A stretch of DNA of 64,000 nucleotides from a virus (IMGVR_UViG_3300035507_000051:1-64000); one strand, 5' to 3'; positions 1 through 39,416 are shown, numbered from the stretch's first letter. The notes: generated by a model from the sequence alone, not told the origin. Made by a program: numbers and translations.

Positions 1-3000
1 TATAGTGATAGGGAGTTTGCTAATGGGGGTAAAGTGCATAGGTTTGATTTAGGTGGTAATTCAGATCCTATCTATGGCCCATATCAATTAAATGAAGTAA
101 TTAAAGTAGGTAATAGCAATACTCCTAATAATGATATGATTAATGCTAGGTTGTCAGAGAGGGCAGTAACAGAAGCTCAACAATCTAGTTAGCCTAGTTT
201 ATTATAGAAAGCTTTAATTGGTACAGGCAGGTTCTTTAATGATGAAATCTTTTTAAATAAAGGTAATGTAAGAGCTAATAATGCTAATAGGGAATGGAGG
301 AATAATCCTGCAGTAATGCAATCATTTGCTGATGGTTAGAATATTGCTGCAACCCCAGTAGCTATGGCTATGGCCGCACCTGCTTGGGAAGTTCCTTATT
401 TAGGTGGTGCTTTAAATGCAATAGGAGCCTATGAAGGAATTAAAAATACTATTGGTCCAGAAGGTGTTGCTAAGACTTATAGAGCTATATAGGATGGTAG
501 ATATTGGGATGCTGCTAAGAGTGCAGGTGGTGATGTTATGAATTTAATGCTAGCTTTACCTGCATTTAATGGTTTAAGAAATGCAACTAAAGAATATGCT
601 TATGGTTTAGGTAGAGGATATAAACCTATTAGGGATTAGATATTAGGTTTGAATTTAAATAGAGCTGCCAGTAAGTTACCTAAAGCTTGGCAGTATTATA
701 CAGAACCCGCATTACTTAGTAGAGCTATTGAATATCCTACTTAGGATAATGGAGTCAATTTTAGCTTAGACTACAAACTTAAAGACCCTGAAACTAAGAA
801 GTTATACAGTAAATTAGTAGAATATAATCCAAGCTTATCTACAGAAGTGAATAGGCAAACAGAGCAATTAGATGCTGCTGCTGAAAACTTTTACTAGACT
901 TTTTTAAGACCTAGAATAGCTATGGGAGGAGAACCTGCACCAGCTAAACTATACAGAGATTCTTGGTTATATGGAAGTAATAAGAGAATAGAGTTTGCCA
1001 ACTTAGAAGATTTTTTCCCAGAGAGCCCATAGATCGGAGGAGTGCACTTTCGTAGTTCAGGAAGGAACTTAATTGATCGGTCTAGAGTAATTTCTAGAGG
1101 TAAAAACCTGAAGAATGTAGCTATTCATGAAGCTGCTTCTCATAGTACTGATGAATTATTGCCACCATCAGTAAAGAAGTTTTATAAGGGAATGCTTAAA
1201 GACTTAGATCCAGATGGTTCATTAATAACTGGAGATGCTAAATAGTGGTATGAGTTACGTGCCACTAAAAATGAGTTATTAAGACAATTAGCTGAATAGA
1301 ATACTTTTGTAAACAATTTGTCTGATATAGAGTTGGCAAAAACATTAGGAGAGTTCAATAATTACGGTAGGTAGTACAGGAATGCTTTGTTTAAATAGCA
1401 TAAGGCAATGCCTTTAAAAGTTGCAGATACATGGCAACCTACTATAGGTGTACCATAGTATAAACAAGGAGTATATGGTTCTGGTAATCCATTCTTAGAT
1501 AAACTAAGATATGCTATTTAGTATTTACCTGCAGCTACAGGAGTAGTAGGTACAGCAGCTGCAGCAGCAGCTACTGCACAAGAAGATAATACATAGATGG
1601 CTAATGGAGGATTAATAAGGAGATTTGATAGTGGTGGCCATAAAGCATCTAGATAGAACTACAAAGATATTTCAGGAATCTAGGGTGCTATAAGATTAGA
1701 TTTACCTGATGGTTCTACTATGGATTTTGCTAATGCTGCTGATGCTCAAGCATTCTTTGATTCTAATTACGGTAATCAAGGTAAATCAATGCAGGTAGTA
1801 GGAGGATAGGATTATAGTGGAGATACCATAGTTAATGGTGGTGTTATGCCTGAATTAACTGTACCTTATAATACTTAGGGTAATGTACCTACATAGGTAG
1901 AAAGTTCTACACCTGATCCTGTAATTGCTGGTATTTATGATGGTAAATATGCAGGTAGATCATTTACTCCTACTCCTTAGAATATTTAGCATTTCTTAAA
2001 TCTGTATTAGTCTGATAAACACATTAATACTGAGTATAGTTAGTAGAAATGGGCTAAAGAATTTGGTAGATTAGGTGCAGTAGGTGCTACTATAGGTTTA
2101 GGTGCTACTGCTCCAGTATGGGCTCCAGAGATGGGTTCTTGGTTACTAAATACAGGCAGAGCTGTATGGAATTCAGGAATGCCTAAATTAATATTAGGTT
2201 CTGAAATTGCTGGTAGAACTGTTGATGCTTTACAAAGAACAGTATCAGGTACTACTACTAGTGAACAAGTTAGTCAATGGTTACAAGAAAGAGGATGGAA
2301 TCCTACACTAGCTGATATGACTGGTTCTACTACTAATCCTGGGTATTGGATGAACTTTTTGAATGGCAAGTATACTCTACCTTTATTAACTAAGTATGGT
2401 TTAGCAGGAGCTGAGGACTTATTACTCAATAGGGCAGAATAGGCTGGTATAACTGCAGTTGGTTAGAGTGATATTAGTAAATTATATTAGGGATTAACTA
2501 ATGGGATTAGCGATGCAAAGAGAGGTGCTGTAAAACTAGGAAGAAATATACGTAGGAATATTCCAGGGCCTGTGAGGTATGTAGTAGATCCTAGATTTAG
2601 GAATAAGTGGAACAATTTTTACTAGGGGTATCGTACCTGGGATGGTAAGTATTAGTCAGAGTAGCTGAAGGAAGCTTTAAGAGTGAGGGATTAGTTGTAT
2701 TAGTACTTGGATGATCATGGTATGAGGTACGCTAGCCCTAAAGAGTATAATCAAGAAGCAGATAATTTATTTAAAAAATTTCAAGAGTAGTTACTAAAAA
2801 ACTACTTAAGATACCACAACACAGATAAAGTCATAATCCCAGCTCCAAATTTAACAAATCCTGCAGAAAAGTTAGTCACCTACACTGATGAGTTGGGAAA
2901 TACTGTTACCAGTAAATTGCCATACACTTTAGTTGGTGCTAAAGAAGGTGCTAATATATCCATAGGATGGAATTCCACACGCCCTTATACTTGGCAAAAT

Positions 3001-5046
3001 GCTTTAATAGCTAAATAGCTTAAGCGAAGTAAAGCTGCTGCGTTTTCTAAGAATATAAGTATGACTAAAGAAGGTTTTGGAGATCCAAATTTATTTTATT
3101 TCCTAAACTAGCCAGAGGAACTTAAAGCTGCAATTAGTCTTAGAAATAATAGATTAAGAGCAATAATGGGAGATGATGGAACTATTGGAGGAAGCAGTGT
3201 ATTAATGGAGAAAGGTATTATTCCAGGAGTTCCAGGAGATGATGATATAATAACTACATTAGCTAGGTATCCTCAATTACTTGCAAAATTAGAAGGAACA
3301 GAGTTAAGTTAGCTTCCTAAAGGTACTGGATTTAAAATTAGATCTTCAAAACTAAGAGCTCAAGGCGAGGATGGCAGAATTGGAGATATAGATATTATTA
3401 AAGAAGATTTAGACCACAAGGCCGTTGGAAACTTAGCACATGAGATTTACTAGACGCTATCACCTACAGAATACAAAAGATTGAGAGAACTAAATGCTGG
3501 AAAGCAAGAAATCACAGAATTTAGAAATAGGAGAACTTCAGAGGATTCTGATATGCCGTTGCCTATTACTGCAGAAGAATTATATTAGTTCTTTAGAAAA
3601 GCTCCTGAATTAAAGGGATTGAGTGACGTTATGGTAAGTCATAAAGATAAACACATACGTAGGGTATTTAGTGCTATCTAGAATACAGAAAATACAGAAC
3701 TTATAAGAAAAATAATAGATAATAAGAGCTCGTCATACTTTGGGGAACCTGTCAAATTGCCAGAATGGTTTGATTTATCTAATGTAGAAGCTAATAAAGC
3801 TCTGTTAAAAGAATATAATTTACCAGAAGAATTAGCTACTAATAAAGAAGCAATGGAAAATATATCAAGGTATTTATATTTCTCTTAGGGAAGTTCAACT
3901 AGAGGTGTGAAAGTTTCTTAGTTACTTGGCCCTGATGGCAATCCATTACCATCAGATGCATCTGACTATGAAATTCTTGAAGCTTTAGAAAGCGCACATA
4001 ATACAGTACTTTCACCATCAAATTCTTAGGTATCTGGCAATTTTGGTAATGGCACTTCTGGGGATAGAGGTGGTGGAACTTTCGGTAATTCTATTTCTAT
4101 TGGATTAACAAGAATTCCTGAATGGGTTAAAACACCTAAAGATTTATTTGATTTTGTGTTTACTCTAAATAAGAAAATGACTAAAGAGTAGGCAGATAAA
4201 CTAAATTAGTTAGGAGAAAAATATGGTCGGGATCCAACTGTAGGCCACGATAGCTTTGAATTCTTTGAAGAAGGCATGCCTTATAAGTATGCATTAAGTA
4301 ATTTAGCATCAAAGAAAGAGGTAAGTGAAGGGGTTGCAGAGATATTAGATGCACCTATGCTAAGAGGATATAGCTACGGAGAAGGAAAGGATTATATTGC
4401 AAGAGTAGAGCCCCCTATGCTTACTGGATATACACACTCTTCTCCCTATGGTATGAATTTTGAGCACGGGAATTTTAATCCAAATCAATAGAGGAAGACT
4501 CCCTTTGATCAAAATAATATTAAAAATTTGTTGACTATGCAGTGGGTTATTGGTTAGGAAAAAAATCCATATCTTTATAATATAGTTCAGCAGTTAAAAT
4601 CATACCAACAAAACTATTTAGACAAGAATTTAAATTTACCATTGCAAGACAGAGTTAATATATCAGTAGCCAAAAAATTTGAAAAAGCTAAAAAAGAGGC
4701 GGAGAAGCAGGGTAATATAAGTACTACCATCGCTAGTAATATTTGGGGCAGATCACAGATTATTCTTAATAAGTTCCTAAAAAGTAAAGCTGCTGTACAA
4801 GGCGCTCCTGCAAGTTTAGCAAAGGCATCAGCACTGCTTGGAGTTCTTGGAGTTCCTGGGTACTTTATGCACAAGGGAATAAAAGAAAATAATACAGACA
4901 CATTCTATAATAGAATGTGGTTAAGTAACCATGGTTATCCTAGGGATTATGATCCTGATAAGCTTTCGGTAAAAGAATTTAGCGATATGTATAAATATAC
5001 AGAAGAAATGAAAGAAAAGAGAAAATAGAAAAAGAAAAATAAATAA
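1..5046 (+). CDS. Giant modular (polyvalent-like) protein, 5'-truncated, >1680 aa with TAG=Gln; HExxxH peptidase-like motif and nucleotidyltransferase-like motif
   Basis: ORF-track pieces 1042, 2131, 4276, 4642 are all frame 1 and end at TAG; TAA at 5044-5046. IHEAASH at ~1123-1143; IGGSSVL..PGDDDI..GDIDII at 3184-3399. Confidence 0.8.
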
Positions 5047-5070
5047 ATCCTATAATATTATTTCAAAAAA

Positions 5071-5104
5071 TTTGCATAATTAAAAAATTATGCTTACCTT
5101 TGCA
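5071..5104 (+). promoter_or_regulatory. Bacteroidota-type -33/-7 promoter for the tRNA cluster
   Basis: TTTG-N20-TACCTTTGCA. Confidence 0.8.
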
Positions 5105-5194
5105 ATGAAAAATCTAATCATAATTGTTGAAATTTAAAAATTAATTAAAAGTAATTTACTCTCTTAGGTATGTGAATATATAAGGGGGTTTTAT

Positions 5195-5266
5195 AGGGAA
5201 ATAGCCTAAAGGTAGGGCACTAAGTTTGGGACTTAGGAAGTGAGAGTTCGAGTCTCTCTTTCCCTA
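5195..5266 (+). tRNA. tRNA-Pro(TGG)
   Basis: Acceptor agggaaa/tttccct; anticodon arm ctaag-tt TGG ga-cttag; TTCGA loop. Confidence 0.9.
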
Positions 5267-5337
5267 CTCATGAAGATTAAGCGGTGTATGGAGCTTTCTC
5301 TTTTTGGCAGTTAGAGGCTAAAGAAACTGCCCATTTC

Positions 5338-5411
5338 AGTCCTTTAGCTCAGTTGGTTAGAGCGCTACACTGATAATGTAGAGGTCGGCAGTTCAACTCT
5401 GCCAAGGACTA
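5338..5411 (+). tRNA. tRNA-Ile(GAT)
   Basis: agtcctt/aaggact; ctaca-ct GAT aa-tgtag. Confidence 0.95.
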
Positions 5412-5543
5412 CTAATAATAAAGAGGATAGTACTAGTGTAAGACTCAACGTAACTGGAAGAACTATATATACTATATGTAGTGAACGTCTTTTGGGAGTC
5501 GTAGAACCCATCCTAGCTGTCGGGACTGATGATGGCAGCTTTC

Positions 5544-5615
5544 ATTGGTGTAGTGTCAACGGTAGCACGGTAAATTCCAAATTTACAGGTGGGAGTTCAA
5601 TTCTCCCCACCCTTG
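5544..5615 (+). tRNA. tRNA-Trp(CCA), acceptor stem with two mismatches (possibly degenerate)
   Basis: gtaaa-tt CCA aa-tttac; T arm gggag/ctccc; acceptor attggtg/caccctt. Confidence 0.7.
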
Positions 5616-5673
5616 CAAATTCCTCTAGAGGGGCCTAGGAGTCCCTGAATATTCAAACACCTAGGTCTAGTTT

Positions 5674-5758
5674 GGGAGTACTTTAATGTGGTGAATTAGA
5701 GTGGTCTGTAAAACCACTGCCTTTGGCTATGTGAGTTCAATTCTCTCTACTCCCACCA
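5674..5758 (+). tRNA. tRNA-Tyr(GTA) with encoded CCA
   Basis: gggagta/tactccc; gtggt-ct GTA aa-accac; long variable arm. Confidence 0.9.
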
Positions 5759-5762
5759 TCAT

Positions 5763-5841
5763 GCCTCAGTACGCAAATTGGCAAAGCGGCCACACTTAGG
5801 ATGTGGTGACTTATTTGTGAGTTCGACTCTCACCTGGGGTA
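5763..5841 (+). tRNA. tRNA-Leu(TAG)
   Basis: gcctcag/ctggggt; ccaca-ct TAG ga-tgtgg. Confidence 0.9.
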
Positions 5842-5860
5842 CAATTAATTGTTAAGTATT

Positions 5861-6058
5861 ATGGCAAAGAAAATAGTAAATATGGAGAGAAAATGGCAAG
5901 CTGAAGAGGATGCTAGAACTCTTGCTAGATACCAAGAGATTATGTCAGATTCTAAAAGAAAATCAGCTGCCATTAAACAAGCTAAGACTGAATCTATTGC
6001 ACTAGAAAAAAGGGCTAATGCTATGAAGCTAGCTGCAGGTGGTAAACTTAAAAGATAA
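5861..6058 (+). CDS. Small basic helical hypothetical protein ending LAAGGKLKR
   Basis: ATG 5861, TAA stop, ORF track. Confidence 0.7.
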   Translation: MAKKIVNMERKWQAEEDARTLARYQEIMSDSKRKSAAIKQAKTESIALEKRANAMKLAAGGKLKR

Positions 6059-6075
6059 AAATAATTACTAAATTA

Positions 6076-6109
6076 TTTGGTAATTTAAAATAATTTACTT
6101 ACCTTTGCA
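6076..6109 (+). promoter_or_regulatory. -33/-7 promoter immediately upstream of the suppressor tRNA
   Basis: TTTG-N20-TACCTTTGCA. Confidence 0.8.
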
Positions 6110-6120
6110 TTGTAAAACAA

Positions 6121-6192
6121 TGCCCTATAGTGTAATGGTTAGCACGAGGGTCTCTAAAACCCTATGTCTCTGTTCAAATCAGAGTAGGGCGG
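6121..6192 (+). tRNA. Amber suppressor tRNA(CUA), predicted Gln identity
   Basis: Acceptor tgcccta/tagggcg with G73; agggt-ct CTA aa-accct; T arm ctctg/cagag. Confidence 0.92.
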
Positions 6193-6212
6193 CTAACTTA
6201 AATTTAATGAAT

Positions 6213-6398
6213 ATGGAGAAGTAGAATAAACAAGCTAAACGCAAATATTTGATTGAGAAAGAGCTTGAGAATGACATGTCTAATATCATGATGCTCTTAG
6301 AAGATGTTGATTATAGAATTTCAGAAGAGGGGTTGGAAAATGAGCAGTTTGTGCTAAATTTCTATGATCAACTAAATGCAATTAGTGTAAAAAAGTGA
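6213..6398 (+). CDS. Hypothetical acidic protein (61 aa, TAG at codon 4)
   Basis: Open from ATG to TGA when TAG=Gln. Confidence 0.55.
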
Positions 6399-6427
6399 AA
6401 TAACGCCAAATTGAGGGATGGTGGAAT

Positions 6428-6500
6428 GCTCCATTAGTTTAACTGGTTAAAATTCAAGCCTTGTAACCTTGAGTAGAAAGTTCGAGTCTTTCATGGAGCT
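6428..6500 (+). tRNA. tRNA-Thr(TGT)
   Basis: gctccat/atggagc; caagc-ct TGT aa-ccttg (C.C mismatch at 31-39). Confidence 0.85.
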
Positions 6501-6506
6501 CTAAAT

Positions 6507-6578
6507 GCAGAATTAGTATAATGGTTATTATGCCAGACTTCCAATCTGGATATGAGGGTTCGATTCCCTTATTCTGCT
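6507..6578 (+). tRNA. tRNA-Gly(TCC)
   Basis: gcagaat/attctgc; ccaga-ct TCC aa-tctgg. Confidence 0.92.
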
Positions 6579-6585
6579 CTAATTA

Positions 6586-6655
6586 TGCGGGGAGGATTGG
6601 TATCCCACTTAGGCTCATAACCTAGGCTAAGTAAGTTCGATTCTTACCCCCGTCA
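6586..6655 (+). tRNA. tRNA-Met(CAT), atypical short D arm
   Basis: ttagg-ct CAT aa-cctag; T arm gtaag/cttac; unpaired 1-72. Confidence 0.7.
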
Positions 6656-6672
6656 CTATTAAAGATAGAAGT

Positions 6673-6831
6673 ATGGAAGAATCTAAAATGACTGCAATAG
6701 CAGCTCCCAATATTAGACAAATTGTTAATAATGCAAATGAATTACATATCTCTAAAGAAGATATAGTAAGTCTTCTTAAAGAGAATGGTCAGTATATATT
6801 AATATATTATGAGCATGGAAGAGAAGACTGA
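6673..6831 (+). CDS. Hypothetical protein (52 aa)
   Basis: ATG..TGA, overlaps start of next gene. Confidence 0.55.
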   Translation: MEESKMTAIAAPNIRQIVNNANELHISKEDIVSLLKENGQYILIYYEHGRED

Positions 6832-7075
6832 AAGACCAGTAATGACTGAAGAAGAATTCAAAGATTACATTGGCTATGGAACTATTAAGTTCTTTGATGG
6901 TGTTGGTAGATTTAGATCAATAAAAAGGGCTATTAAGCATGGTAAGGCATCTCCTCTAGGAGAGGTTTATCCAGATAGACCTTTCAATAATAGGAAGCCT
7001 ACTAAAGGTAGAGCTATGAATGAGAAGAAAAAAGATGTCTATGCAAAACTCAAACAACTAGGACATATACAATGA
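6815..7075 (+). CDS. Hypothetical basic protein
   Basis: ORF track 6809-7075; second ATG taken as start. Confidence 0.7.
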   Translation: MEEKTERPVMTEEEFKDYIGYGTIKFFDGVGRFRSIKRAIKHGKASPLGEVYPDRPFNNRKPTKGRAMNEKKKDVYAKLKQLGHIQ

Positions 7076-7250
7076 AGAACCTGTTTTTTATTGTAAGCAC
7101 TGCCTATCACTAAAGATTAGAAATGAGACTAGGTTGCCTGACCTAGACTATTGTGATGAATGTGGTTCCACAGATATAGAAACTACAAATATACATAACT
7201 GGGAAGATATGTATAAACAAAGATATGGATTTAAATTTTTAAATAGATAA
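7041..7250 (+). CDS. Zn-ribbon protein (CKHC...CDEC)
   Basis: Open with one TAG; two CxxC pairs. Confidence 0.7.
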
Positions 7251-7256
7251 AAGACA

Positions 7257-7535
7257 ATGGAAGAGAAGAAGAAAATACAGATGGTTACTAAACCTACTTA
7301 TGAAGATTTGTTGCAACAGATTGAAGGTTTGAAAGGTATTAATCAGCAACTTTATAATCAGTTGAATAGTATTAATATGAGCAATCTATTTAAGAGATTG
7401 GACTATCTGTTTAAAGTTCTTGAGCATAAGGATGCTTTTAACTCTAAGTTTATTGATGATTGTGCAAAAGAAATTTGTGCAGTTATGACTCCTCCTGAAG
7501 AGGATGAAACTGAAGCTACTGAATCTAAAGAGTAA
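7257..7535 (+). CDS. Coiled-coil hypothetical protein
   Basis: ORF track. Confidence 0.75.
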   Translation: MEEKKKIQMVTKPTYEDLLQQIEGLKGINQQLYNQLNSINMSNLFKRLDYLFKVLEHKDAFNSKFIDDCAKEICAVMTPPEEDETEATESKE

Positions 7536-7540
7536 TTACT

Positions 7541-7924
7541 ATGAGGGGAAGTGTTGATAATGTAATTAGAATCCCCACAACTCTAGATAATCTCTTTAAG
7601 CACTGGCTAGATTTTCTTAAACCATTTCATAACTTAACTGAGAGGGAAATGGATGTAGCAGCTACTATTATTAAGCATAGACATTAGCTTAGTAAAGTAA
7701 TCTCTGATGAAGAAATTCTTGATAAGGTAGCTATGAGTGAAGATACTAAAAGAGCGGTGAGGGAGGAATGTGGTATTTCACTCCCTCACTTCCAAGTTAT
7801 CATGAGTAAGTTAAAGAAGAGCAAAATAATTCTAGATAACAAGGTTAATCCTAGATTTGTTCCTAAACTTAAAGAGGAAAATGGTAACTTTCAATTATTG
7901 CTATTATTTGAACTAAAGCAATGA
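7541..7924 (+). CDS. RepL-like winged-HTH protein
   Basis: Extended upstream through one TAG; LTEREMDV...KLKKSKII..KVNPRF resembles a wHTH; recalled crAss synteny. Confidence 0.55.
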
Positions 7925-8605: not shown

Positions 8606-8609
8606 CACT

Positions 8610-8644: not shown

Positions 8645-8650
8645 TATGCT

Positions 8651-9207: not shown

Positions 9208-9528
9208 ATGACTGCAGAGAAAATTATAGAAACTTTTGATGGATGGATTAGCACTAATGTGCAACCATGTCATTTAATTTTACAAAAGATAATTACCACT
9301 AAACCGTTTAAAGCATTTAAAGAGTATAAATATGTAGTGTGGAATGTGGAAGGTAAGAAAAAATTGGATATTGCCAATATATCTACTGTAGCTAAATCTA
9401 CTAATGACAGTGAGGAGGAACAAAATCATAAAGAAATGGATAAAAGATTACTCCTCACTATGATAGAGTTAATTAAATCTCCAATTATAAAGAATATTCT
9501 TGAAGGTAATTATGATATAGACAAATAA
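9208..9528 (+). CDS. Hypothetical protein
   Basis: ORF track. Confidence 0.7.
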   Translation: MTAEKIIETFDGWISTNVQPCHLILQKIITTKPFKAFKEYKYVVWNVEGKKKLDIANISTVAKSTNDSEEEQNHKEMDKRLLLTMIELIKSPIIKNILEGNYDIDK

Positions 9529-11761
9529 GTATCAAACACCTGTAACAGAAGAACTTATAGAATCTTTACATCCAGAAATTAAAGAGTAGTTTCTGGATGT
9601 ACTTACTAATATACCTTATGTAAGAAAACTTATAGCTGTAGACAGACCTTATGCTAAAGATCTACCTAGAGATGATGATGGCAAAATTATAATAGACATT
9701 ACTAATCCACATATACTAGAAGATACTGATTACTTTAGACCTACAGCTATTCATTTCCAACAAACAGGTAGATTAACTGATCTTAGACCTAATGGTAATC
9801 CTAATTCAGAATTTGGCAAATGGATTAGAGAAGAAGTTAGGAGATGTTATGAAGGTTATGTAAGGGAATCTGATGGTGAGTGGATTACAGGTGATATGTA
9901 TTTCTTTCTTAACTATTGTCCTATATAGTTAATTAAGAAGGATGAAAAAGGTAAAACTATTAGAGCTATTGACTTTCCTAAATTCTGGGATGGTCATTAT
10001 TACAAATTTCACTACCTAAACCAATGCAGACTTAAAGGCAAACATGCAATGGAATTAGCATCTAGAGGTAAAGGTAAATCATATTCAGCTGCAGCCATGC
10101 TAGCTAAAAGGTTTATACTAGGTGAAGGTAAAGAAGTTAATAAGAAAGTACAATGTGTAGTAACTGCATCTGAAAAGAAGTATCTGCATGGGGCTAATTA
10201 GGTGTTGGATATGTTCTAGTACTATATAGACTTCTGTGTAAAATATACTCAATTCCCATCAAAAAGATTAACATCAGCTTTAGAAAATCTTCAATGGGTT
10301 ATGGGTTACATTGATGCAGATACTGGTGCTAGAATGGGTACTGAAAATAGTGTAATTGGCATCACTTCTAAAGATGATGAGTCTAAGCTTAGAGGTTCTA
10401 GAGGTGTGTTATATTTACTTGAGGAAGCAGGTTCTTTCCCTAAGTTGCTTAATCTATATTAGGTATTAAGGCCTTCTGTAGAAGATGGTGATAGTGTTTG
10501 GGGATTAATATTTGCTTATGGTACTGCAGGTGACTCTGATTCTGACTTTAGTTCTATGTAGGAGCTTATGTATAATCCAGATGGCTATAACATCCTAGGA
10601 GTAAATAATATCTATGATAAAGAAGGTCAAGGAAGAAAATAGTTTACTTATTTTTTCCCTGGATACTTGAATAGAGCTGAGTGCTATGATGAAGATGGTA
10701 ATAGTGATGTAACTAAAGCTATTATTCAAATACTTAAAGATAGATTCTAGGTAAAATATAATAGTACAAATATCAATGCTATTGTAAAGAGAATTGCTGA
10801 AATTCCTATTACTCCACAAGAAGCTATTCAAAGAGCTAAAGGTAATATATTCCCTATGGCGGAATTAACTTCTAGATTAAATGAAATTGATGGTAATCCT
10901 AACTTTTATGATGATGTTTATGTTGGAGATTTGGTATTTAATAAATCTAATAAAGTAGAATTTAAAGTAGGCTATGAAAAACCTATTAGAGACTTTCCTA
11001 CTAAAGATAACAAAGTAACAGGTGCTCTAGAGATATATGAGATGCCATAGGAAGTACAAGGTAAGATACCTCAAGGTAGATACATTGCATCATTAGATAA
11101 CTATGAAAATGATGAATCAAATACTATGTCTTTAGGTTCTTTATTTGTACTAGACTTATGGACTGATAGAATAGTAGCTGAATATACTGGTAGGCCTATG
11201 TTTGTTGATGACTTAAATGAATTAGCTAGAAAGATATGCTTATTCTACAATGCGCAACTTCTCTATGAAAATAATAAGAAGAATACATTTGCTTACTTTA
11301 GTAAAATGAATAGTTTATCTCTTCTTGCAGATACTCCTGAATACTTAAGAAATAAGTAGCTGGTTAAAACTACAGGATATGGCAATAGCTCTAAAGGTGT
11401 AAGTGCTACTACTCCAATTAAAGCATTTGGGTTTACTCTTATTAGAGATTGGCTATTAAAACCAGTAACTGTATCTAAAGAAGAAGATGGTCAGGAAGTT
11501 CAATACACAGTACCTAATTTACATTATCTTAAAAATAGAGCTCTAATTAAAGAACTTATGCTATTTAATCCTGATATAAATGTGGATAGAATAATGAGCT
11601 TAGTACAGCTCATGCTATTTAGGGAAGAAAAGATGATTTTATTTCAAGGTAATCCTAAAGCTAATTTGACAGTTCCTTCTAATTACCTAGGTAATGATGA
11701 GTTCTTTAGGGTAAATTATGATGATAAATTCAGTAAATTTAGTGACTTCAGTTTTGATTAA
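9512..11761 (+). CDS. terL: Terminase large subunit (749 aa, TAG=Gln)
   Basis: Walker A ASRGKGKS, Walker B YLLEEAG, C-terminal nuclease (LDNY..SLGS..YENN..DRIM); fragments share one frame. Confidence 0.92.
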
Positions 11762-11836: not shown

Positions 11837-14248
11837 ATGGAAACTAATGTAATAAGCTTACCACCATAGCAACTATCTTTTACTAAAAAGAATAAAGCTT
11901 GGCGTAAAAAGCATTTAGATTGGGCCAAAGGTAAAACCTTCTTAAATCATAGTTTGGTTAGGAAATCAGTAATGCACAAAAAGATTAACTATGACTTGCT
12001 TAATGGTAAGTTACACATGGATGATCTTTGTATGGTGATTAATCCTGAGAACATTAAAGGAGAGTTTATACCAGATAAAATATAGCACTACCCTATAATG
12101 AATTCTAAATTGAATGTACTTAGGGGTGAGGAGTCAAAAAGAGTATTTGACTTCAGAGTTGTTGTGACTAATCCTAATGCTATATCAGAAATAGAAGAAA
12201 ATAAGAAGAATGAAGTTTTTGCTAGAATGCAAGCTTTAATTCAAGATACTGCATAGTCAGAAGAATAGTTCAATGCTGAACTAGAAAAAATGAATGATTA
12301 CTTTACTTACGAATGGTAGGACATGAGAGAAGTAAGAGGCAATGCTATCCTTAATCATTATACTAAGGAACTTAATATGCCACTTATGTTTAATCAAGGA
12401 TTCATGGATGCTATGGCAGTAGGTGAAGAGATTTATTAGTGTGATATAGTTGGAGGAGAGCCTACTATTGAAAGAGTGAATCCTATGAAAATTAGGATAT
12501 TTAAATCTGGATATAGTAATAAGATTGAGGATGCTGACATTATATTACTTGAAGATTATTGGAGTCCTGGCAAAATTGTAGATACTTTCTATGATGTTTT
12601 GACTGAAAAAGACAGAAAGTATATAGAAGCTGCACCTAATAGAGTAGATCAACCAGCAGTAGATTCTATGGATAATATAGATGAAAGATTTGGCTATATT
12701 GAAGTAGATAAAGTTACTCCTAAAGCAGGAGAGGGATTCTATTTTGATGCTGGTGGATTATTCTCAGAAGGTGATATTAGTACTCTGCTGCCTTATGATA
12801 TGGCAGGTAATCTAAGAGTAATTAGGATGTATTGGAAATCTAGAAGAAAGATTAAAAAGGTTAAGTCCTATGACCCTTAGACAGGTGATGAAACCTTTAC
12901 TTTCTATCCTGAAACTTATGTTATTAATGAAGATTTAGGAGAGGAAGAAGAAGTCTACTATATCAATGAGGCATGGGAAGGCACTCTTATTGGAGAAAAT
13001 GTTTATGTAAATATGAGACCTAGACCAATATAGTACAATAGACTATCTAATCCTTCTAGGTGTCACTTTGGTATTATAGGTTCTATATACAATCTTAATG
13101 ACAGCAAACCCTTCTCTCTAGTAGATATGATGAAGCCATATAACTATTTATATGATGCAGTTCATGATAGGCTAAATAAACTACTGGCTAAGAATTGGGG
13201 TAAAATTCTAGAACTTGATTTAGCTAAAGTCCCTGCAGGTTGGGATATTCAAAAATGGCTATATTATGCTAAAACTAATAATATAGCTGTAGTAGATAGC
13301 TTTAAAGAAGGCAGCTCTGGGGCTTCTATGGGTAAATTAGCTGCAGGTCTTAATAATGCTAGTAGAGGTGTAATTGATGCTGAATTAGGTAATATTATTT
13401 AGCAAAATATTAACCTACTAGAGTTTATTAAGCTAGAGATGGCTGATGTTGCTGGTATATCTAAGCAAAGAGAAGGTCAGATTAGTAATAGAGAAACTGT
13501 AGGTGGTGTTGAAAGAGCTACTCTACAATCATCTCATATTACTGAGTGGTTATTCATTATACATGATGACGTTAAAAAGAGAGCACTTGAGTGTTTTCTT
13601 GAAACTGCTAAAATAGCAATGAAAGGTAGAAATAAGAAATTCCAATATATTTTATCTGACAATGCTATACAAATCATGGATATTGATGGAGATGCATTTG
13701 CTGAATGTGACTATGGTTTAGTAGTAGATAATAGTAATGCAGTTCAAGAACTTCAGTAGAAACTTGATATGCTTGCACAAGCTGCTTTATAGAACCAAGC
13801 TCTAAACTTCTCTACTATAATGAAATTATATAATAGTGCAAGTATTGCCGAGAAGGAAAGAATGGTTGAAAAAGCAGAACAAGATATGATGCAAAGACAG
13901 CAAGAAGCTCAACAGCAATAGATGCAGCAGCAACAAGAACAAATGCAAGCTGCAGCTTAGCAGAAGGAAGCTGAAATGCAATTACAAGATTAGCTAAATC
14001 AGAGAGATAATGAAACTAAGGTTATGGTAGCTACCATTAATGCTTAGTCTAGTGAAAATCAATCTATGGATCCAACTGCTGAAATCTAGAATGAAAGAGC
14101 TTTACAAGAAAAGATGAGGCAGTTTGATGAAAAACTCAGACTGGATAAAGATAAGTTTGAGTTTGATAAGAAAAAGCATAGTGAAGATAATGCACTAAAG
14201 AGAGAAATTAGTATAAGATAGGCTAGAAGTAAAAGTGGAAATAAATGA
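11837..14248 (+). CDS. Portal protein (803 aa, TAG=Gln)
   Basis: Follows terL; GISKQREGQISNRETVGGVERA motif; Gln-rich C-terminal coiled coil. Confidence 0.88.
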
Positions 14249-16005: not shown

Positions 16006-16006
16006 T

Positions 16007-27152: not shown

Positions 27153-27959
27153 ATGACTGATACAGAAAAACTTAACTTAGAATTCAGCAATGAGTTTGAT
27201 GTGCTCTACAACAATATAACTTCAAACTAGGCTCCAGGTCTTGATGAATATGAAAAATCAGTCTTCCTAACTAGGGCGTAGGATGAAATAGTTAAAGCCT
27301 ATTTTAATCCTAAACTTAACAAGTCTATGGAAGGTTTTGATGGTAATGAGAAGAGGTAGATAGACTTTTCTATGATTATTAAAAGTGAACAATAGCAGAG
27401 GTAGACTTCTACATCTAATGCAGGCGTTCAAGTAACATTTAATCCATTCTAGGATGGTATATTTGATCAAAGAAAAGAAACTGGCTCTGTAACTCTTCCT
27501 GAGGATATACTCATGTTTATTAATGAGTATGTTGTTGTAAATAGGAATGACAACTCAGTTAGACTGAATGTACTTCCAATTACCTATACAGAATATTCTA
27601 GGATAATGAGTAAACCATATAAGAGACCTCTTAAATTCTAGTGCTGGAGACTACTTGATAACACTAACGGATCTAGAAGAGCAGAACTTATAGTAGGCCC
27701 TAATGATAGAATAGACCAATATGTTTATAGGTATATCAAAAGACCTTGTGCTATTAGGCTAACTGACTTTGATGATGAAGTTACTTTAGATGGTGATAGC
27801 ACTGCATAGGCTTGTGAACTAGATCCTATACTATATCCAGAGATAATTCAAAGAGCTGCAGAATTAGCTAAAGCTGCTTATGTTGGAGATTTAAATACTC
27901 AAATAGCTTTAGGTACTAATTCTTAGACTAATGTTGGTATGCTTACATCTAGTAAATAA
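27153..27959 (+). CDS. Tail ring protein (paralog A)
   Basis: EFSNEFDVL..DEYEKSVFLTRA(Q)DE; paralog of next gene; recalled crAss synteny. Confidence 0.7.
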
Positions 27960-28654
27960 TGACAACTGAAGAATTTAGCAATGAATTTGATACTCTTATC
28001 AATAGCTATGCTACTTCAGAGTCATTTGGTAATAGCTAGAATCCTTTGAATTTTGATGAATATGAGAAGTCAGTATTTCTTACTAAAGCTCAAGAAGAAC
28101 TGGTAATTCATTACTATACAGGAAAAGCTACTGGAGATTCATTTGAAGATACTGAATAGATGAGAAGATACCTTAGTGAACTAGTTAAAACTGATGAACT
28201 TGTGACTAAGATAGATGCTAAAGGTATTTCAGATAATTCAGTATTCTTCAAGTTACCTAACGATGTTTGGTTTATAACATATGAATCTGTAACTTTAGAG
28301 GATGAGTCTAAATGCTTAAATGGTAAAAATATCCAAGTAGTTCCTGTTACTTAGGATGAGTATCATAAAATAAAAGATAATCCATTTAGGTAGGCTAATT
28401 CTAGGAGAGCACTTAGATTAGACAATGAAAATAATTTAGTAGAAATTATATCTCCTTATAATATTGCAAAATATATTGTAAGATATGTAGCTAAACCTAC
28501 TCCTATTATTTTAGTTGATCTGCCTGATGAATTATCTATTAATAATGAAAATAAAATAACTGAGTGTAAATTAAATCCTGTGACTCATAGGACTATATTA
28601 GAGGTTGCTGTTAAGTTAGCAATTAGTAGTAGGAGTTCTAGTACAGGTAAATAA
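27959..28654 (+). CDS. Tail ring protein (paralog B)
   Basis: EFSNEFDTL..DEYEKSVFLTKAQEE. Confidence 0.7.
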
Positions 28655-31818: not shown

Positions 31819-32509
31819 TTATATTTCTATTAAACAGATACTTGATAATTGCTTGCACCATCCAATGCTTCAAGACTTAACTCTAGAAAGAGCAGTAGCC
31901 TATGCAGTTGACTTCCTTAGAATTGTGTAGGCTCCTGCTATATTTCTAGAAAAAACTGCAAAACTAGAAGTTAATGGATATAGAGCAATACTTCCTTGTG
32001 ATTTTCATAGGATAATTCAAGTAAGAACTAAACATAAAAATTGTGATTAGGAAGTAATGTCTGCATTTAGAGCATCAACAGATAGTTTCCATCTTAGTGA
32101 AGATAAAAGTAATTCTCCTGAATTAACTTATAAAATTCAAGGCAGAGTAATATTTACTTCAATTAAAGAAGGTACTATTGAGATAGCCTATTAGGCTATT
32201 GCAGTGGATGAGGATGGTTATCCTTTAATTCCTGACAATAGTTCTTTTACTAGAGCATTAGAACTGTACATTAAAAAGCAGTGTTTTACCATACAATTTG
32301 ACCAAGGTAAAATTAATGCTCAAGTATATAATAATGTATGTTAGGAGTATGCTTTTGCTGTAGGTCAAGCTCAAACAGATATGATAAGACCTACTATTGA
32401 TGAAATGGAGGCTATTACAAATATGTTAAATACTTTAGTTCCCAGAGTATCTGATCATAACAGAGGGTTTAGATACAATGGAACTAAAGAATATATAAAG
32501 CAATAGTAA
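31811..32509 (+). CDS. Tail ring/tubular protein (P22 gp4-like candidate)
   Basis: Open when TAG=Gln; DEDGYPLIPD motif; precedes muzzle gene. Confidence 0.65.
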
Positions 32510-32510
32510 T

Positions 32511-35500
32511 ATGTAGAAATTTATTAAGTTTAAATTGTTAGGGATGGATACTGACTCTGATCAATCCCTTATAGATGGAACTACTTCTATATATAACTAC
32601 AATGTAAGATTCACTACTATAGAAGATAATTAGACATCTGCAGTTATTACTAATGAAAGGGGCACTAAGTAGATTGGAGATATTGCAATAACAGGAACTC
32701 CAATAGGCTATGCTGTAGCCGATTAGTATCTAGTTATCTTTTATGTGTACAATACTACTAGTTACATTAGCATATACACTAATACTAATGATGTAATTTC
32801 TCACTATTATACTTATCAAGGTAATTTAAATTTCAGTGAATTAAACCCTATTGAATGTTAGGTTGCTTGGGAAAGGGAAGCTTTAATAAAAATTTTTTGG
32901 ATTGATGGTAGAAATCCATTAAGATTTTTAACTATACCTACAGATTTTACTTCTAATATACAGGAAGTCCAAGCTAACTACTTTGATGTAGTAAAAGATA
33001 TAGACTTTGAGTCTGATTTACAGAATTCAATAAGTGTAACTAGAGAATCTTTAGGAGGTACTTTTCCTGCAGGAGTTATACAATATGCTTTTACTTACTA
33101 TACTAAATATGGGTCTGAAAGTAATATCTTTAAAATGACTCCTTTATATTACTTAAGTAATGATAGAGGAGGTACGCCGCAAGATAGGTCGGTGTCTTGT
33201 GCCTTCAGTATTACTATTGATAAGGTAGATACTAAAGGTAATTGGGATTTTCTTAGAATATATTCTATACTTAGAACTTCTTTAAATGGAGAAGCTGTAT
33301 GTAAAAGAGTTGTTGATATCAGTATAAAAGATTTTTCAGAGTCTATTACCTACATAGATAATGGAGAATACGGTGAGACAATAGATTCTACTAGGCTGCT
33401 ATACTTAGGAGGGGAAAAGATCATACCTAAAACTATTGCACAGAAAGATAATACATTATTTCTAGGGAATTATAGCATAGTAAGAGCGGAAATACCCAAT
33501 AGCATAAAAGATATTCTTAGAAAGGCAGTTAATTCTGATAACTTTTTTAAATTAACTTACGCTAAAGAAGAAAACTCTGATGTGACTTATGCCAGAAAAG
33601 TAATATCTACTATATAGAATTCTGAAGGTAAATTGCAGACTTATTAGTATACACCACAATTGTATGAAAATTAGGATTAGATAACTACATTCAAATGTGG
33701 AGAGACTTATAGAATAGGAGTACAATTGCAAGATACTACAGGCAGATGGTCTGAACCCATATTCTTATTTGATGCTACTAATGGAGTATTTCCAGAAACC
33801 ACCAACGCTAGTATAATAACAGACACTAGTTCTACATCTAAAGCACCTGCATTGGATACTGAAAATTCAGTTAGTACTGACACTACAAATACTATAGCTG
33901 CAAAATGGGATAATGTAAAAGTTGAAGAAACTAATTAGCTCATTGGTGTTGGAGATACTTTAACTTAGGAAGATACTTCTACTCAAAGCAGCACTACTGA
34001 AACTTCTAAAACTACTACTTCATCTAAAGCATCTAAAGCTTTATATTAGGGAATACTACCTTTTGGACACTTAAGATTAAATTTAAATAATATAAAGGCT
34101 TCTGAAGATTCTGATACTAGCTTGCTATCTTATTTTAAAAATTTAGGTTATATTAGAATAAGGCCAGTAATTGTATTACCTAATGAGGGCCAAAGAGAAG
34201 TTCTTTTTCAAGGAGTGGCTAATCCAACTATTAGGAAAGGAGAATCTTAGAGTAATTTTGATTACAGAATTCCTTCATGGTTTTTTAGACCTATAAAATC
34301 AGATAATGCTCCTAATAGTACAGACTACTACTTGGGCTCATCACAATATTTAGGTGTATTTCCTGAATATAGAAATGGAGAAGTTATTACTTACTATGAC
34401 TACACTAGAGGTAATAATAACACTCTGGCGGAATTTCAATATAAAACATCAGACTTATTCTACATTGATTGGGGAGTAATAACTGTTGATTCTCCCGATA
34501 TTAGATTTAACGAGCAAATATCTTTAGTAGATATGGATGACGTTAAAGCTAGAATAGTAGGTTATGTAGATATTCAAGGGAATGCAGCTAGTTATAATAT
34601 AGAGATAGAGGGTACTACAGAGCCTGCAGAAAAGTATAAAGCAAATGCGCTAATGTCTGCAGTTCCTCTTGGTAATAAAACTACTGTAACTAGCTCTTAT
34701 TTATCTGGAAGTATTACATCAGGCAACAGAGGAGCTATACTACTTAATGCTCCATTGTGGTTAGATGGTATATCAGATAGGGGAGAATAGGGCTATGATT
34801 AGTATATAGCACAATGGTATGTATTTCCTTGGCATAGGAGTGGATCTTTAAATAATTGCTCATCTACTAATATGAACAATATTGAAGGAGCAGCTAAACC
34901 CTCTGTATTAAAAAAGAAAATTATAGCAAATGCTAGATTTGGATATAACACCTCATATGATATAGCTAAAAAAGATTTAAGTATTACAGATACTAAAATA
35001 TTTTTACAAACTAGTGATGCTTAGTTAACTAGATTTACTGATGGTAGTTTATACAGAAATAATATAGACATAATACTACCTGCATCAGGACTAACTGCAT
35101 TTAAAGCTTTTGGATTAATGCAATCTACTACTACAACTGATGGAGATAAGATTATGACAGTTACTCCATATTATGGAAAGTAGATAGGGGATTCCCCTTC
35201 ATTCAACAAAGATACAGATCCAGTAGAAGCTAATACTGCTAATTTGTTAGGCTGCTTTTTTAACTTTTCTACTACTACAACTAATGCTAAATTTTTATAT
35301 TATGATCTTTTGCATGATAGTGTAGGTAATGGGAATTCCTACCATGTTAGTTCAGATCCAATACCTATGTAGTTTAAAACAGGCAGTAATTGTATACTAA
35401 AGCTAAATTCTAGTTTAGATTATAATCAACTAAAAAATTCTGACAATAGTAAATTTATTTATGAGATTTCAAATGGCAGGTGGCTACCTATAGTAGAAGT

Positions 35501-37007
35501 TTATAGAGAGGTGTCTAATAAATTTGGAGGAACTTCAGATGATGCTATTTAGCAGAATGCGTGGTTAGTAGCTGGTAATCCAGTACTATTAACTGATGAT
35601 AGTCTAAATATATTTTGGGATAGAGGAGATACTTATTTTTAGAGATATGACTGCTTGAAGACGATGCCTTATAGTGATAGTTCAGTTAATAACATTATTG
35701 AGATACTATCATTTTTTTGTGAAACTAGAATTAACATTGATGGTAGATATGATACTAATAGAGGATTACAAGACAATACTAATGTTAGTTCTACAAATTT
35801 TAATCTACTAAATGATATTTATTCTTAGAAAGACAATTACTTTGAGTATTATATAGCAGACTATGATTTAACTCAAATTAATTCTTATCCTAATTAGATT
35901 ATATGGTCTAATACAAAAGTAGCTGGAGATACAGTAGATGCTTGGACTAATATAACTTTACTAAATAGTTTAGATTTAGATGGAAGTAAAGGTACTGTCA
36001 ATGCTATAAAGAATTTTAATGGATAGCTTTATACTTTCTAGGATTCAGGCATCGCAATGCTTGGATACAATCAAAATGCTATGGTTAACTCCCAAGATGG
36101 TGTTCCAATTGAAATAGCTAACTCTGGGAAGGTCACAGGTTCAATATACATTAGTAGTAATCAGGGCTGTATTAATAAATGGACTATTACTGACATAGGT
36201 GAGGGATTGACCTTTGTAGATTCTCTAAATAGGACTTTCAATTTGTTTAATGGTAAAGCTATATAGGATCTTGGAGAAAAAGCAAATTTTAGAGCCTGGA
36301 TTAAAGCTAATTGTGGAAGTTTAGATTCTTGGAATCCTGTATGGAAAAATATTAATCCCAATACTTTAACTGTATTGCATGATAAACAGGCTGGAGAACT
36401 ATTACTAGTAAATAAAGACAATGCAGTTGCATATAGTTTAGGTCTTCTTAAATTTACTTCATTTTATAGCTATGAGGCTTGCCCTTGGTTTATCAATAGT
36501 AGAGAAACGCCCATACTTTTACAGCATTTAGATAGCAGATACTGGGGTATGTGGAAACCTAGAGCCGGAGAATATAACAAGTTCTTCAATTCTATTAAAC
36601 CTTATACTATTGAATTTATTATGAATGATGCCTCTTTATTTGATGTGTATAAAATGTTTTCTACTTTAGAAATCAGAGATACTGTATTAGCTTCTCAAGA
36701 GGATACTTATGAAACAAGTCCTAATAAAATTAGCATACAAGATGATTTTTCCTTTGATACTATTCAAACTTATAATAGTTACTAGGATTCTGGTAAGTAG
36801 AAGTTATCTTTCTTAAGAAACAAGCCTTCAAATTTAAAAGCTAAATTTAGAACTTGGAGAATTCAAATACCTAGAAATAAAAATAAAGGAGTTGGTAGAA
36901 CCAGTGATAGAATGAAAGATCACTATTTAACAGTAAAACTATCTCATGATAATCAAACTACAAAAGGAGTAAAAATTCATGATATAGTAGCATCATACTA
37001 TACTTAA
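32511..37007 (+). CDS. Muzzle/tail stabilisation protein (1498 aa)
   Basis: Five track fragments in one frame; WIDGRNPLR and KFRTWRIQIPR motifs; ATG-TAG start. Confidence 0.75.
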
Positions 37008-37011
37008 TTAT

Positions 37012-37049
37012 TAAAGGTAAGCAATATATTTGCTTACCTTTTATTTTTT
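37012..37049 (+). terminator. Intrinsic terminator
   Basis: aaaggtaagcaa/ttgcttaccttt followed by T tract. Confidence 0.8.
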
Positions 37050-37059
37050 GACTTAAAGT

Positions 37060-37093
37060 GTTGATAGTTTCGCTGATTTTTACTATCTTTGTG
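37060..37093 (+). promoter_or_regulatory. -33/-7 promoter for the cargo operon
   Basis: GTTG-N20-TATCTTTGTG. Confidence 0.7.
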
Positions 37094-37118
37094 CTTAAAT
37101 AATTAATACAGTATTAAT

Positions 37119-39416
37119 ATGAGAAAAAATGGAATAACAATTGTTAATCCTTGGAATAAAGATGCAATAAACTAGCATTATTATGGAATTACTCCAGATA
37201 ATGTAAATCAATATGATTTGGGTGGTGCTTTGCAATTGGCTTAGACTGGCACTTAGCAACTAGCAGATGGAGTCAAGGAATTAAATAATATAGGAGATAA
37301 ATCCAAATAGTTAAATAATTAGATACAAAGTTCTAATATATCAGCAACTCAAGCTTCTAGCACTGCAGATTTATTAGCAGAATACAATGCCTATAACCCT
37401 TTAGCTAAAGTTACTTGGAAAGACTTTACAAATAAAGGAGGTATTGGAAGCACATTAACAGACATGGTAGGTAATGGAGTTTAGGGAGCTATGAGTGGAA
37501 GCTCTATGGGACCAATTGGAGCAATTGGAGGTGCAGGAATAGGTTTAGCTACTGGATTATTTACTAATCTAGCAGCTAAAGCTAAAGCTAAAAGAGAAGC
37601 AAAGGCTGCTAATATAAAAATAGCAGCAGCTAATATTAACAATTAGAGTATATTAGACAATAAAGCTATAGGTTTAGACAACAGAATGCTCAGACAGGAT
37701 TTAAATAATTTTACTGGCTGGGAAGCAGCTTATGGTGGGCCTTTAAATAGAGAATTTGGATTTGGGGGAAATATGCTTACTAATGGGTCTGTTTTTTCTA
37801 CAGGATTGACTTTTATAGATACAGGAGGTACTCATGAACAAAATACTAATGGTGGAGTACCTGCGGGAGTTAATCCACAAGATGGAATCCCTAATTAGGT
37901 TGAAGAAGGTGAGGTTATTTATGATGATTATGTATTTAGTAATAGGCTAAGAGTAGCTAAAGAATTAATGGAAAAATATAAACTAAATCCAGAAAATGGG
38001 AAAAATCCAACTTATGCATAGGCTATAAGAAAATTATCTAAAGAAATTAGTGAAAGGCCTAATGACCCTATAAGTAAGAATGGATTAGAGGCTATAATTA
38101 AAGAATTTGCCTAGTATCAAGAAGAAAAAAGAGCTAAGTAGTAGCAAAAGAAACAACAGTAGCAACAACAACAATATTAGGATCAAGTATTGCTACAACA
38201 AATGCAATAGGCTTAGATGCAATAGGCATAGGAATAGTAGCAATCCCAATTTGTAAATGGTGGATTAGTTAGAAGATTTGATGATGCTGGCTCTTTAGTA
38301 GATCCTACTGAAGGCATCATATATACTCCTGATGAAGGCAATTTACCTGAATTAACCGTGGTTTATACAAGACCCAACACACCTGCTCCAGTGCAAATTT
38401 CTGATAGAGGTCCAATAAATCCGGATACTCCATCTTAGCCTATAGATACTTTTCTAAATTATATTGAGCCATAGACTCCAATTACACCTCTAGTACCTGC
38501 TTCTCCAACTATAGATCCAAAAGCAAATGCTTTAGAAGTAATAGCAGAAAGAAAAAGTAATCTAGCAGCAGGAAAATAGTATTTTGTTTCAAAGAGAAAT
38601 CCCTATAAGGTTCTTACATCTCCTGTAGAATTAGCAACAAAAACTACTACACCAGAAAAGAAGGGAAAAACTTATTAGGATTTTCTTAGATTTGCTCCTG
38701 TAGTTAGTCAAGCGATTTAGGGATTAACAGATGCTTTTGGTTTTACCAATAGGCCTACTTTTAATTTAGGAAAAAGAATACTAGCTGCTAATAATGCAAT
38801 AAGAGATGTAGGTACAGAAGCTGTAGGCACTAAACTGGGATATAGGCCTGTAGATTAGTGGGCTGCTATTAATAATTTAAACGCGCAAGCTGCTGCACAA
38901 AGGGCTCTTATAAGAAACTCGAATAATAGAGTTGGGGCTGCAGGATCCTTATTAGCTGCTGCATACAATTAGAATAAAACTTTAGGAGAACTATATGCTA
39001 ATATGGAGAATGCTAATTGGAGTAGATTAGCTAGTGTAGCTTAGCATAATACAGGAATAGATCAGTCTAATAGACAGGCATTTGATCAAGCTGCTCAATT
39101 CAATGCAAATTAGGGAGTAAGAAGGGCTGCTAATATGATTACTGCTGCTTAGGCGGATGATGCTGAAGAAACTGCAGCTTATCAAGCAATAGCTAATAAT
39201 AGAACTAATTTAGCTAATACTTTAGGAGCTATAGGTAAAGAAAGACTTGAAAGAGGTATGCTAAAAGCTCTAATTAAATCTGGATATGCAGGAACTCCTA
39301 ACCAGGCTTTAATAGCTGCATTAGCTAGATATGGTATTAATGTAGGATAGCTTACTACTGGAGCTAAAAATGGTGGTAAACTTAATAGAAAAAAGAAAAA
39401 AGGATTGACTTATTGA
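37119..39416 (+). CDS. Cargo/ejection protein (765 aa)
   Basis: Gly-zipper hydrophobic segment; GGTHEQN..GGV..VEEGEV..YVFSNRL motif; poly-Q linker. Confidence 0.7.
38139..38249 (+). repeat. Poly-Gln tract of mixed CAA/CAG/TAG codons
   Basis: 10 TAG among 37 codons, interleaved with CAA/CAG. Confidence 0.85.

Follow-up and report, generated by a model that had tools for sequence, protein, structure and literature searches.

No other viruses of the human gut are as abundant as the crAss-like phages, which inject megadaltons of protein. In phage T4, a short peptide, the capsid-targeting sequence, directs unrelated internal proteins into the head for injection; this tag is N-terminal and is removed by the prohead protease gp21 at L/I-x-E. 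Polyvalent proteins of phages and conjugative elements are delivered by the virion as long chains of exchangeable modules, in some cases with a zincin-like peptidase (Iyer, Burroughs, Anand, de Souza and Aravind 2017, PMC5512222), and the cargo protein gp45 of Bacteroides phage crAss001 was shown to be in the virion by mass spectrometry and cryo-electron microscopy (cryo-EM) (Bayfield et al. 2023, PMC10172136; PDB 7QOG, 7QOI, 7QOJ, 7QOL, 8CKB; Pfam PF25725). Here we analyzed a recurrent 14-residue motif with two Gly-Gly pairs in a window of 64,000 nucleotides, the first 64 kb of the 98,183-bp circular assembly (127-bp terminal overlap) IMGVR_UViG_3300035507_000051, a crAss-like phage whose portal shares 70% identity with the IAS virus portal and 67% with the crAss001 portal (two Steigviridae). 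The best-supported reading is that the motif occurs in disordered linkers of particle-carried proteins, where it marks the seams between modules, and it has more the look of a docking handle than of a cleavage site. Compared with the T4 tag, the motif is unrelated in sequence, lies internally or C-terminally, is often repeated, and occurs in a genome without an S77-type protease. The main text on polyvalent proteins contains none of 'glycine', 'GG motif' or 'linker' (PMC5512222), and GG motifs are not described in the crAss001 structure paper (PMC10172136). Our literature search for crassviruses together with Gly-Gly or double-glycine returned no relevant description of the motif.

All 17 in-frame stops within bases 1-1700 are TAG, and reading through TAG triples the open-frame length. 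The genes are visible only with TAG recoding, and we assumed its meaning to be glutamine, as is usual for such phages. Under this translation, the three recurrent copies that a sequence-only reading of the window had listed were all found (copies 1 to 3, Table 1), two of them in a 1,863-amino-acid (aa) modular protein and one in cargo protein 1 (C1). Their consensus is F/M-A-N-G-G-x-V-x-R-F-D-x-G-G (search form xNGGxxxRFDxxG), which resolves into two tandem "aromatic/Met-x-x-Gly-Gly" units, FANGG and FDLGG, nine residues apart. We defined the basic unit as an aromatic residue or Met, any two residues, Gly-Gly, any residue, and a hydrophobic residue. The variants YDLGG, AAYGGPLNREFGFGG (AAYGG..FGFGG) and AKNGGKL are single or double basic units. 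These variants named in the same reading are present, as is LAAGGKL, the last only in an unverified open reading frame (ORF) of 65 aa, for which tblastn against cultured and deposited phage genomes found no homologue.

The three copies form a mutual clique, with at least 9/14 identities in every pair, while shuffled proteomes gave only 2-6 unrelated pairs. A profile built from 12 copies of different phages recovered exactly these three sites in the 98-kb genome, at 42-48 bits, and had no match in the PDB. The copies differ in DNA at synonymous positions and their flanks are unrelated, which rules out recent duplication or gene conversion and implies that selection acts on the peptide. The motif is common to unrelated proteins encoded 37 kb apart, and its proposed position at module boundaries and termini was borne out by copy 2, copy 3 and the C1 tail, as described below.

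C1 is a member of the gp45 family. Its residues 214-349 match Pfam crAss_CARG1 with 159.7 bits (cut-off 27), and it matches gp45 (PDB 7QOG chain M) with an expectation value (E) of 1.6e-58 and, at the fold level, with a template modelling (TM) score of 0.69 normalised to the target. Like gp45, it has the portal-binding domain, a place after the muzzle gene, GG units flanking ordered segments, and a basic GG-K-x-x-K-K-K-K-G-L-T-Y tail; gp45 differs in that its sole post-domain copy, MFAYGGDTNPYG, is degenerate and lacks the RFD half. To describe conservation, we collected 120 C1 homologues from a large protein collection, of which 109 had a recognisable domain anchor, and aligned 70 diverse members. 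A post-domain GG unit was present in 107 of the 109 anchored homologues, 107-200 residues past the anchor and usually after a Gln-rich helix. The column counts (n=70) were [FY] 58, A 52, x, G 69, G 69, x, [LMVI], [RN], [KR], [YFW] 63, x, x, x, G 52. The glycines of copy 3 are G381 and G382, each kept in 69/70. Copy 3 thus belongs to the conserved elements of the family, on a par with the core of the portal-binding domain, and it lies at a module boundary, following that domain at a position conserved across the family. The strict RFD form is restricted to about 10 of the 120 homologues. The unit at the domain start is similarly kept (G216 and G217 in 67-68/70), and AKNGGKL is the conserved C-terminal tail of the family, x-G-G-K-L/I-x-R/K-K-K-x-G-L-T-Y, kept in most homologues. 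Edges of insertions and deletions (indels) in the family fell near motifs 32 times against 15.2 expected; the sequences are related, so the p-value is inflated. A search of IMG/VR for close C1 relatives, by protein and alignment, confirmed none.

We modeled C1 with AlphaFold2 on the family alignment. The portal-binding domain was predicted confidently, together with long helices, and all four GG motifs of C1 fell in segments with a predicted local distance difference test score (pLDDT) below 50 (1-48, 201-226, 380-434 and 747-754). Copy 3 opens the segment 380-434, directly past the helix 317-379. A folded docking of copy 3 in cis onto the portal-binding domain was rejected because of the low pLDDT.

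The solved crAss001 gp45 allowed the motifs to be placed on an assembled particle. Its modelled portal-bound segment (425-552) starts at AFGG (425-428), its ordered tail-barrel helix (214-245) starts three residues past SAYGGPLE (SAYGGPL from residue 207), and MFAYGG lies six residues beyond the end of the portal-bound segment at 552. The C1 sequence AAYGGPLNREFGFGG aligns to both SAYGGPL and AFGG, so the equivalents of the residue-207 and residue-425 motifs are fused in C1, and the roughly 210 gp45 residues between them, including the tail-barrel-binding helix, are absent here. This deletion relative to gp45 joins two GG motifs at 37725-37769. In the mature-virion cryo-EM model, AFGG is intact, ordered and contiguous with the portal-bound domain. 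The mapping therefore indicates that the motifs bracket the parts of the chain held by the particle, and that at least one of them is ordered and uncut in mature virions.

The frame of the gene for the 1,863-aa protein is continuous across the 127-bp terminal overlap. Its sole homologue, P0004, is 36% identical over the C-terminal body, and has the same N-terminal leader of 35 residues, which runs directly into RSGGLVNRYDSGS and then the shared body. This layout of leader, motif and body makes copy 2 a true module joint, since copy 2 stands exactly where P0004 joins its leader to the shared body. The N-terminal 190 aa (the leader and the next domain) match gp063 of IAS virus, which is encoded in the tail/cargo gene block and in which a lysozyme-like part continues after YAKGG. 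The modularity of the protein was thus seen by comparison with P0004 and gp063. With E values up to 1 allowed, no part of it matched a family in Pfam or PHROG, and no effector domain or catalogued polyvalent domain was recognised in it. Tblastn of its window part against 50,697 phage genomes gave no match, and no close relative was confirmed in IMG/VR by protein and alignment. Among 30 relatives found by their terminase, none had a motif copy within 10 kb of the terminase gene, which makes the large gene lineage-specific. The sequence-only reading had called all carriers cargo-type: this is demonstrated for C1, and for the 1,863-aa protein we infer that it is carried in the virion.

Other features of this protein were noted. 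The leader, MWKDLSMSEKARYIKLGVQGGIKD...YNNY (genome 97638-97742), is common to P0004 and IAS virus gp063, where an x-x-GG unit directly follows it; this leader may form a small domain of its own for addressing or docking. The best-conserved part shared with P0004 comprises GGSS..PGDDDIITT and GDIDIIKE (3187-3258 and 3382-3405), without a Pfam match, and looks like the Gly-Ser and acidic triad of a polymerase-beta-type nucleotidyltransferase.

The motif is also found in unrelated phages. In IMG/VR, a degenerate DNA pattern for the 14-mer hit 46 loci and a control pattern for the reversed peptide hit 23, and at least 8 independent, unrelated phage protein families carried the strict 14-mer in long ORFs. 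Positions left free in the pattern still agreed: Ala precedes NGG in 7/8 families, and V, L or I stands two residues past GG in 8/8, so that conservation reaches some 15 residues around the GG, on both sides. These families include polyvalent proteins, with the 14-mer directly following a RadC JAB domain in one and an ART-PolyVal domain in another. A further family has a Hint domain, namely the ORF at 3786-5759 of L006 (an IMG/VR contig of an unrelated phage), which combines a triple GG array, LAHGG-VVA-LANGG-AVQR-FDDGG, with a long region rich in Pro, Thr, Ala and Gln and with an autoprocessing domain of the Hint type (PT-HINT) at its C-terminus. The neighborhoods are those of virion or ejection genes: L027 adjoins a portal gene, L036 follows a 'DNA ejection protein', and L044 and L017 lie among virion structural genes. 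The polyvalent proteins L027, P0127 and P0132 carry the motif at their extreme C-terminus.

Against 1.84 billion representative proteins, the profile gave ten matches at E up to 0.001. Nine are modular phage-type proteins; among the ten are a C1-like protein that has three copies, and three polyvalent proteins in which numerous x-GG-x-V units occur together with HExxH. All-against-all BLAST of the fetched motif loci found no shared partner protein spanning the groups. The guanine-cytosine (GC) content of the motif-bearing phages runs from 0.3 to 0.6, implying very different hosts. Tblastn of the motif ORFs of L036 and L009 against phage genomes gave no match, and P0127 matched only uncharacterised marine and freshwater phage proteins. 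The first 50 kb of IAS virus contain simple x-x-GG units and no RFD-type copy.

Taking these results together, we tentatively propose that the motif is a short linear docking or tethering motif at the module seams of particle-carried proteins. A sequence that is very highly conserved yet predicted to be disordered bears the hallmark of a short linear binding motif, and docking is further favored by the order seen once the particle is assembled. Copies at the extreme C-terminus are sensible for a handle and not for a separator. The seam behavior is indicated by the P0004 leader joint, the absence of about 210 gp45 residues and the indel edges near motifs. The motif would be disordered alone and would become ordered on binding a partner, which may be the portal, the tail barrel or a neighboring cargo protein; this binding would load the cargo module and fix its place in the particle. 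The 1,863-aa protein, with two copies, would use the same handle for uptake into the particle. Each module would bring its own handle, so that the motifs would become seams at which modules are gained, lost or swapped.

Several points weigh against this proposal. The docking partner and the binding itself are a proposal only. The motif is near-identical in phages without other proteins in common that BLAST can detect, which would be odd for a handle co-evolving with a phage-specific receptor; such near-identity appears to fit better a universal partner or an enzyme of fixed specificity, and is the main unexplained point. The gp47-like cargo proteins are almost without the motif, which is therefore not a general requirement for cargo loading. 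Low pLDDT in a predicted model would be equally expected of a plain linker. Finally, the raw excess in IMG/VR is small, and the case there rests on the shared positions that the pattern left unspecified.

A more far-reaching version of the docking proposal is doubtful in our view: that the aromatic-x-x-Gly-Gly unit, with the doubled ANGGxVxRFDxGG, serves many unrelated tailed phages as a portable address label and suffices to dock any module to a conserved site inside the procapsid or on the portal, loading it for injection. If this were true, the sequence alone would reveal which cargo a phage carries, and gut phage particles could be made to take up foreign proteins.

The sequence-only reading had offered a capsid-packaging tag, a role that is plausible, or a double-glycine-type protease site, possibly cut by the phage's own zincin domains to turn polyproteins into individual effectors. 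In the protease explanation, which we consider rather unlikely, the modules would be freed by cleavage at or close to Gly-Gly, before or after they leave the head, through the zincin-like domain of the gp47-like cargo protein or a peptidase of the host, and a targeting role may be combined with it, as in the T4 tag. Adenovirus protease, pS273R of African swine fever virus and coronavirus PLpro cut virion or polyprotein precursors at hydrophobic-x-G-G. Sites of the first two and C39 double-glycine leaders resemble the motif in having a hydrophobic residue a few positions before Gly-Gly in packaged or exported proteins. Here, however, the hydrophobic residue is at P5 and Ala, not a hydrophobic residue, at P4, and conservation continues about ten residues past the GG. 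The motif is internal or C-terminal, not the end of a 15-30-residue N-terminal leader. No C39 peptidase (PF03412), no clan CE peptidase of family C48 (PF02902) or C5 (PF00770), no prohead protease of the T4 gp21 or HK97 type (S77, PF03420; S78, PF04586), and no MPTase-PolyVal or eCIS_core, was matched in the complete genome.

One candidate for such an enzyme stands among the zincin domains that had been suggested, namely the C-terminal domain of the gp47-like protein. GTAYHEAFHYV is kept in 62/62 homologues, with E111, E112 and E116 invariant 32-37 positions downstream of HExxH. Its AlphaFold model has a pLDDT of 77, and its best, modest fold matches are PPEP-2, a Pro-Pro endopeptidase (Z 6.0), and anthrax lethal factor (Z 5.7); it has no match to PF18818 or to any other Pfam family. 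In the 1,863-aa protein, a zincin was rejected, with no Pfam match and HEAASH having the wrong spacing for HExxH. That this conserved domain travels with the cargo speaks for processing, as do the HELTH or HELQH of the polyvalent proteins bearing the 14-mer and the suitability of a fixed-specificity enzyme for conservation at the sequence level across unrelated phages. The motif also lies at module joints of polyvalent-type proteins, for which zincin-like processing has been proposed (PMC5512222). Homologues of the gp47-like protein further resemble polyvalent proteins in their inserts, which are ART-PolyVal (PF18760), PF08719 and HATPase in precomputed Pfam matches. Yet gp47-like proteins, including those with ART-PolyVal inserts, almost lack the motif, which is therefore not a general separator of cargo modules.

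The state of the proteins in crAss001 virions also bears on cutting. Conserved AFGG of gp45 is uncut there, and at the AYGG-P-L copy of the C1 family, Pro follows GG in 39/57 sequences. Cutting at C-terminal copies would free only about 10 residues. Virion gels show bands of 150, 270 and >300 kDa, and gp47, gp49 and gp50 (154-277 kDa) were reported as high-molecular-weight virion proteins; as the bands are near the predicted sizes, these large cargo proteins appear to be close to full length. The crAss001 structure paper mentions neither cleavage nor proteolysis (PMC10172136). The evidence thus leans against a cut directly after GG, and the double-glycine-type protease site is not upheld.

Without any specific partner, the motif could also be a passive hinge or seam, with Gly-Gly between bulky residues as a flexible break allowing modules to be unfolded one by one and threaded through the portal and tail channel, and surviving mainly because viable chimaeras arise when such linkers recombine. 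Predicted disorder, the enrichment of indel edges and the module swaps at motifs agree with this, as does the rise of motif number with protein length in the C1 family (Spearman 0.36); partial unfolding during extrusion was proposed by the crAss001 authors (PMC10172136). However, a hinge has no need for Ala at -1, a hydrophobic residue at +2, basic residues at +4/+5, an aromatic residue at +6 or a second Gly pair, all kept across unrelated phages, nor for 69/70 conservation. Since the copies differ in DNA, they are not recombination microhomology either. We therefore regard this explanation as unlikely.

A different partner, a conserved host component met at entry such as a periplasmic energy-transducing protein, would be bound by the motif together with (V/L)(L/M)PELTV. 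The latter peptide occurs three times in the phage, each time near an RFD copy (the third at genome ~98112-98135, outside the window), and P0004 has YLPEVEVVG. We take the peptide to resemble the Bacteroidota TonB box. A universal partner would fit near-identical motifs in phages with no other detectable common proteins. Nevertheless, the C1 family does not conserve PELTV, which stands now before and now after the motif, and the GC range implies very different hosts. We consider this explanation very improbable. Chance or low-complexity resemblance without function, for which one may cite that glycine-rich short strings are common and that even the reversed peptide hit 23 loci, is refuted by the clique test, the C1-family conservation, the agreement of unspecified positions across at least 8 families, and profile scores with no other match in the genome.

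The genes of the window are mapped in Table 1. The order muzzle, C1, cargo protein 2 and large RNA polymerase-associated protein is that expected for crassvirus cargo protein 1. The suppressor tRNA belongs to an array of nine tRNA genes (5195-6656); ORFs 5240-5686 and 6105-6398, which overlap tRNA genes, are unlikely to be genuine. On the minus strand, a gp49-like protein of 1,655 aa (47354-52321) has a weak match to PD-(D/E)XK nuclease at residues 630-714 (Pfam PF12705, E 3.1e-5). Two neighboring genes, 27153-27959 and 27959-28654, are paralogues, with 12/14 identities between LDEYEKSVFLTRAQ and FDEYEKSVFLTKAQ; they are possibly the pair of paralogous tail-barrel ring proteins described for crAss001.

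Table 1. Motif copies, variant units and associated genes in the 64,000-nucleotide window (positions counted from its first letter)
Feature	Position	Strand	Remarks
Gene for 1,863-aa modular protein, 3' part (P0001)	1-5046	+	Starts at genome 97638 and crosses the circular junction
Copy 1, FANGGKVHRFDLGG	16-57	+	1,863-aa protein, residues 186-199; profile 46-48 bits; between N-terminal leader with HFPD..HPTYPD domain and middle module
Copy 2, MANGGLIRRFDSGG	1597-1638	+	1,863-aa protein, residues 713-726; 46.2 bits; after Ala/Thr-rich linker, where P0004 homology begins
MPELTV	1846-1863	+	About 75 aa after copy 2
65-aa ORF ending LAAGGKLKR (at ~6020-6055)	5861-6058	+	Candidate gene, between tRNA genes
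Suppressor tRNA, anticodon CTA	6121-6193	+	Supports TAG as an amino-acid codon
Terminase	9512-11761	+	
Portal	11837-14248	+	
Muzzle	32511-37007	+	crAss_MUZ
Cargo protein 1 (C1), 765 aa	37119-39416	+	Pfam crAss_CARG1 (PF25725)
YDLGG unit	37212-37226	+	C1 N-terminal segment
AAYGGPLNREFGFGG, two GG units	37725-37769	+	Just before and at the start of the C1 portal-binding domain
Copy 3, FVNGGLVRRFDDAG	38250-38291	+	C1 residues 378-391 of 765; 42.3 bits; after the portal-binding domain
LPELTV	38343-38360	+	18 aa after copy 3
C-terminal tail of C1, AKNGGKLNRKKKKGLTY, and stop codon	39363-39416	+	Tail letters to 39413
Cargo protein 2	39418-41271	+	crAss_CARGO2
gp47-like cargo protein, 2,009 aa	41271-47300	+	C-terminal domain zincin-like
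HEAFH of gp47-like protein	46830-46844	+	C-terminal domain 46608-47297

What appears to be new here is the doubled RFD form, the place it takes behind the portal-binding domain across the family and its occurrence in phage lineages that are unrelated, along with the mapping of the motif onto the solved gp45 segments and the fold evidence for the gp47-like zincin. How the proteins that crAss-like phages inject are chosen, arranged and released is a question to which a sequence-readable motif, present at every C1 joint and in accessory cargo-like proteins, gives a handle. The motif predicts particle-carried proteins among the uncharacterised ones and marks the points at which modules may be swapped. 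As a short peptide, it is open to mutation or reporter fusion in crAss001 or cultured relatives, and since polyvalent proteins from marine phages that are not related also carry it, the rule may well extend beyond one family.

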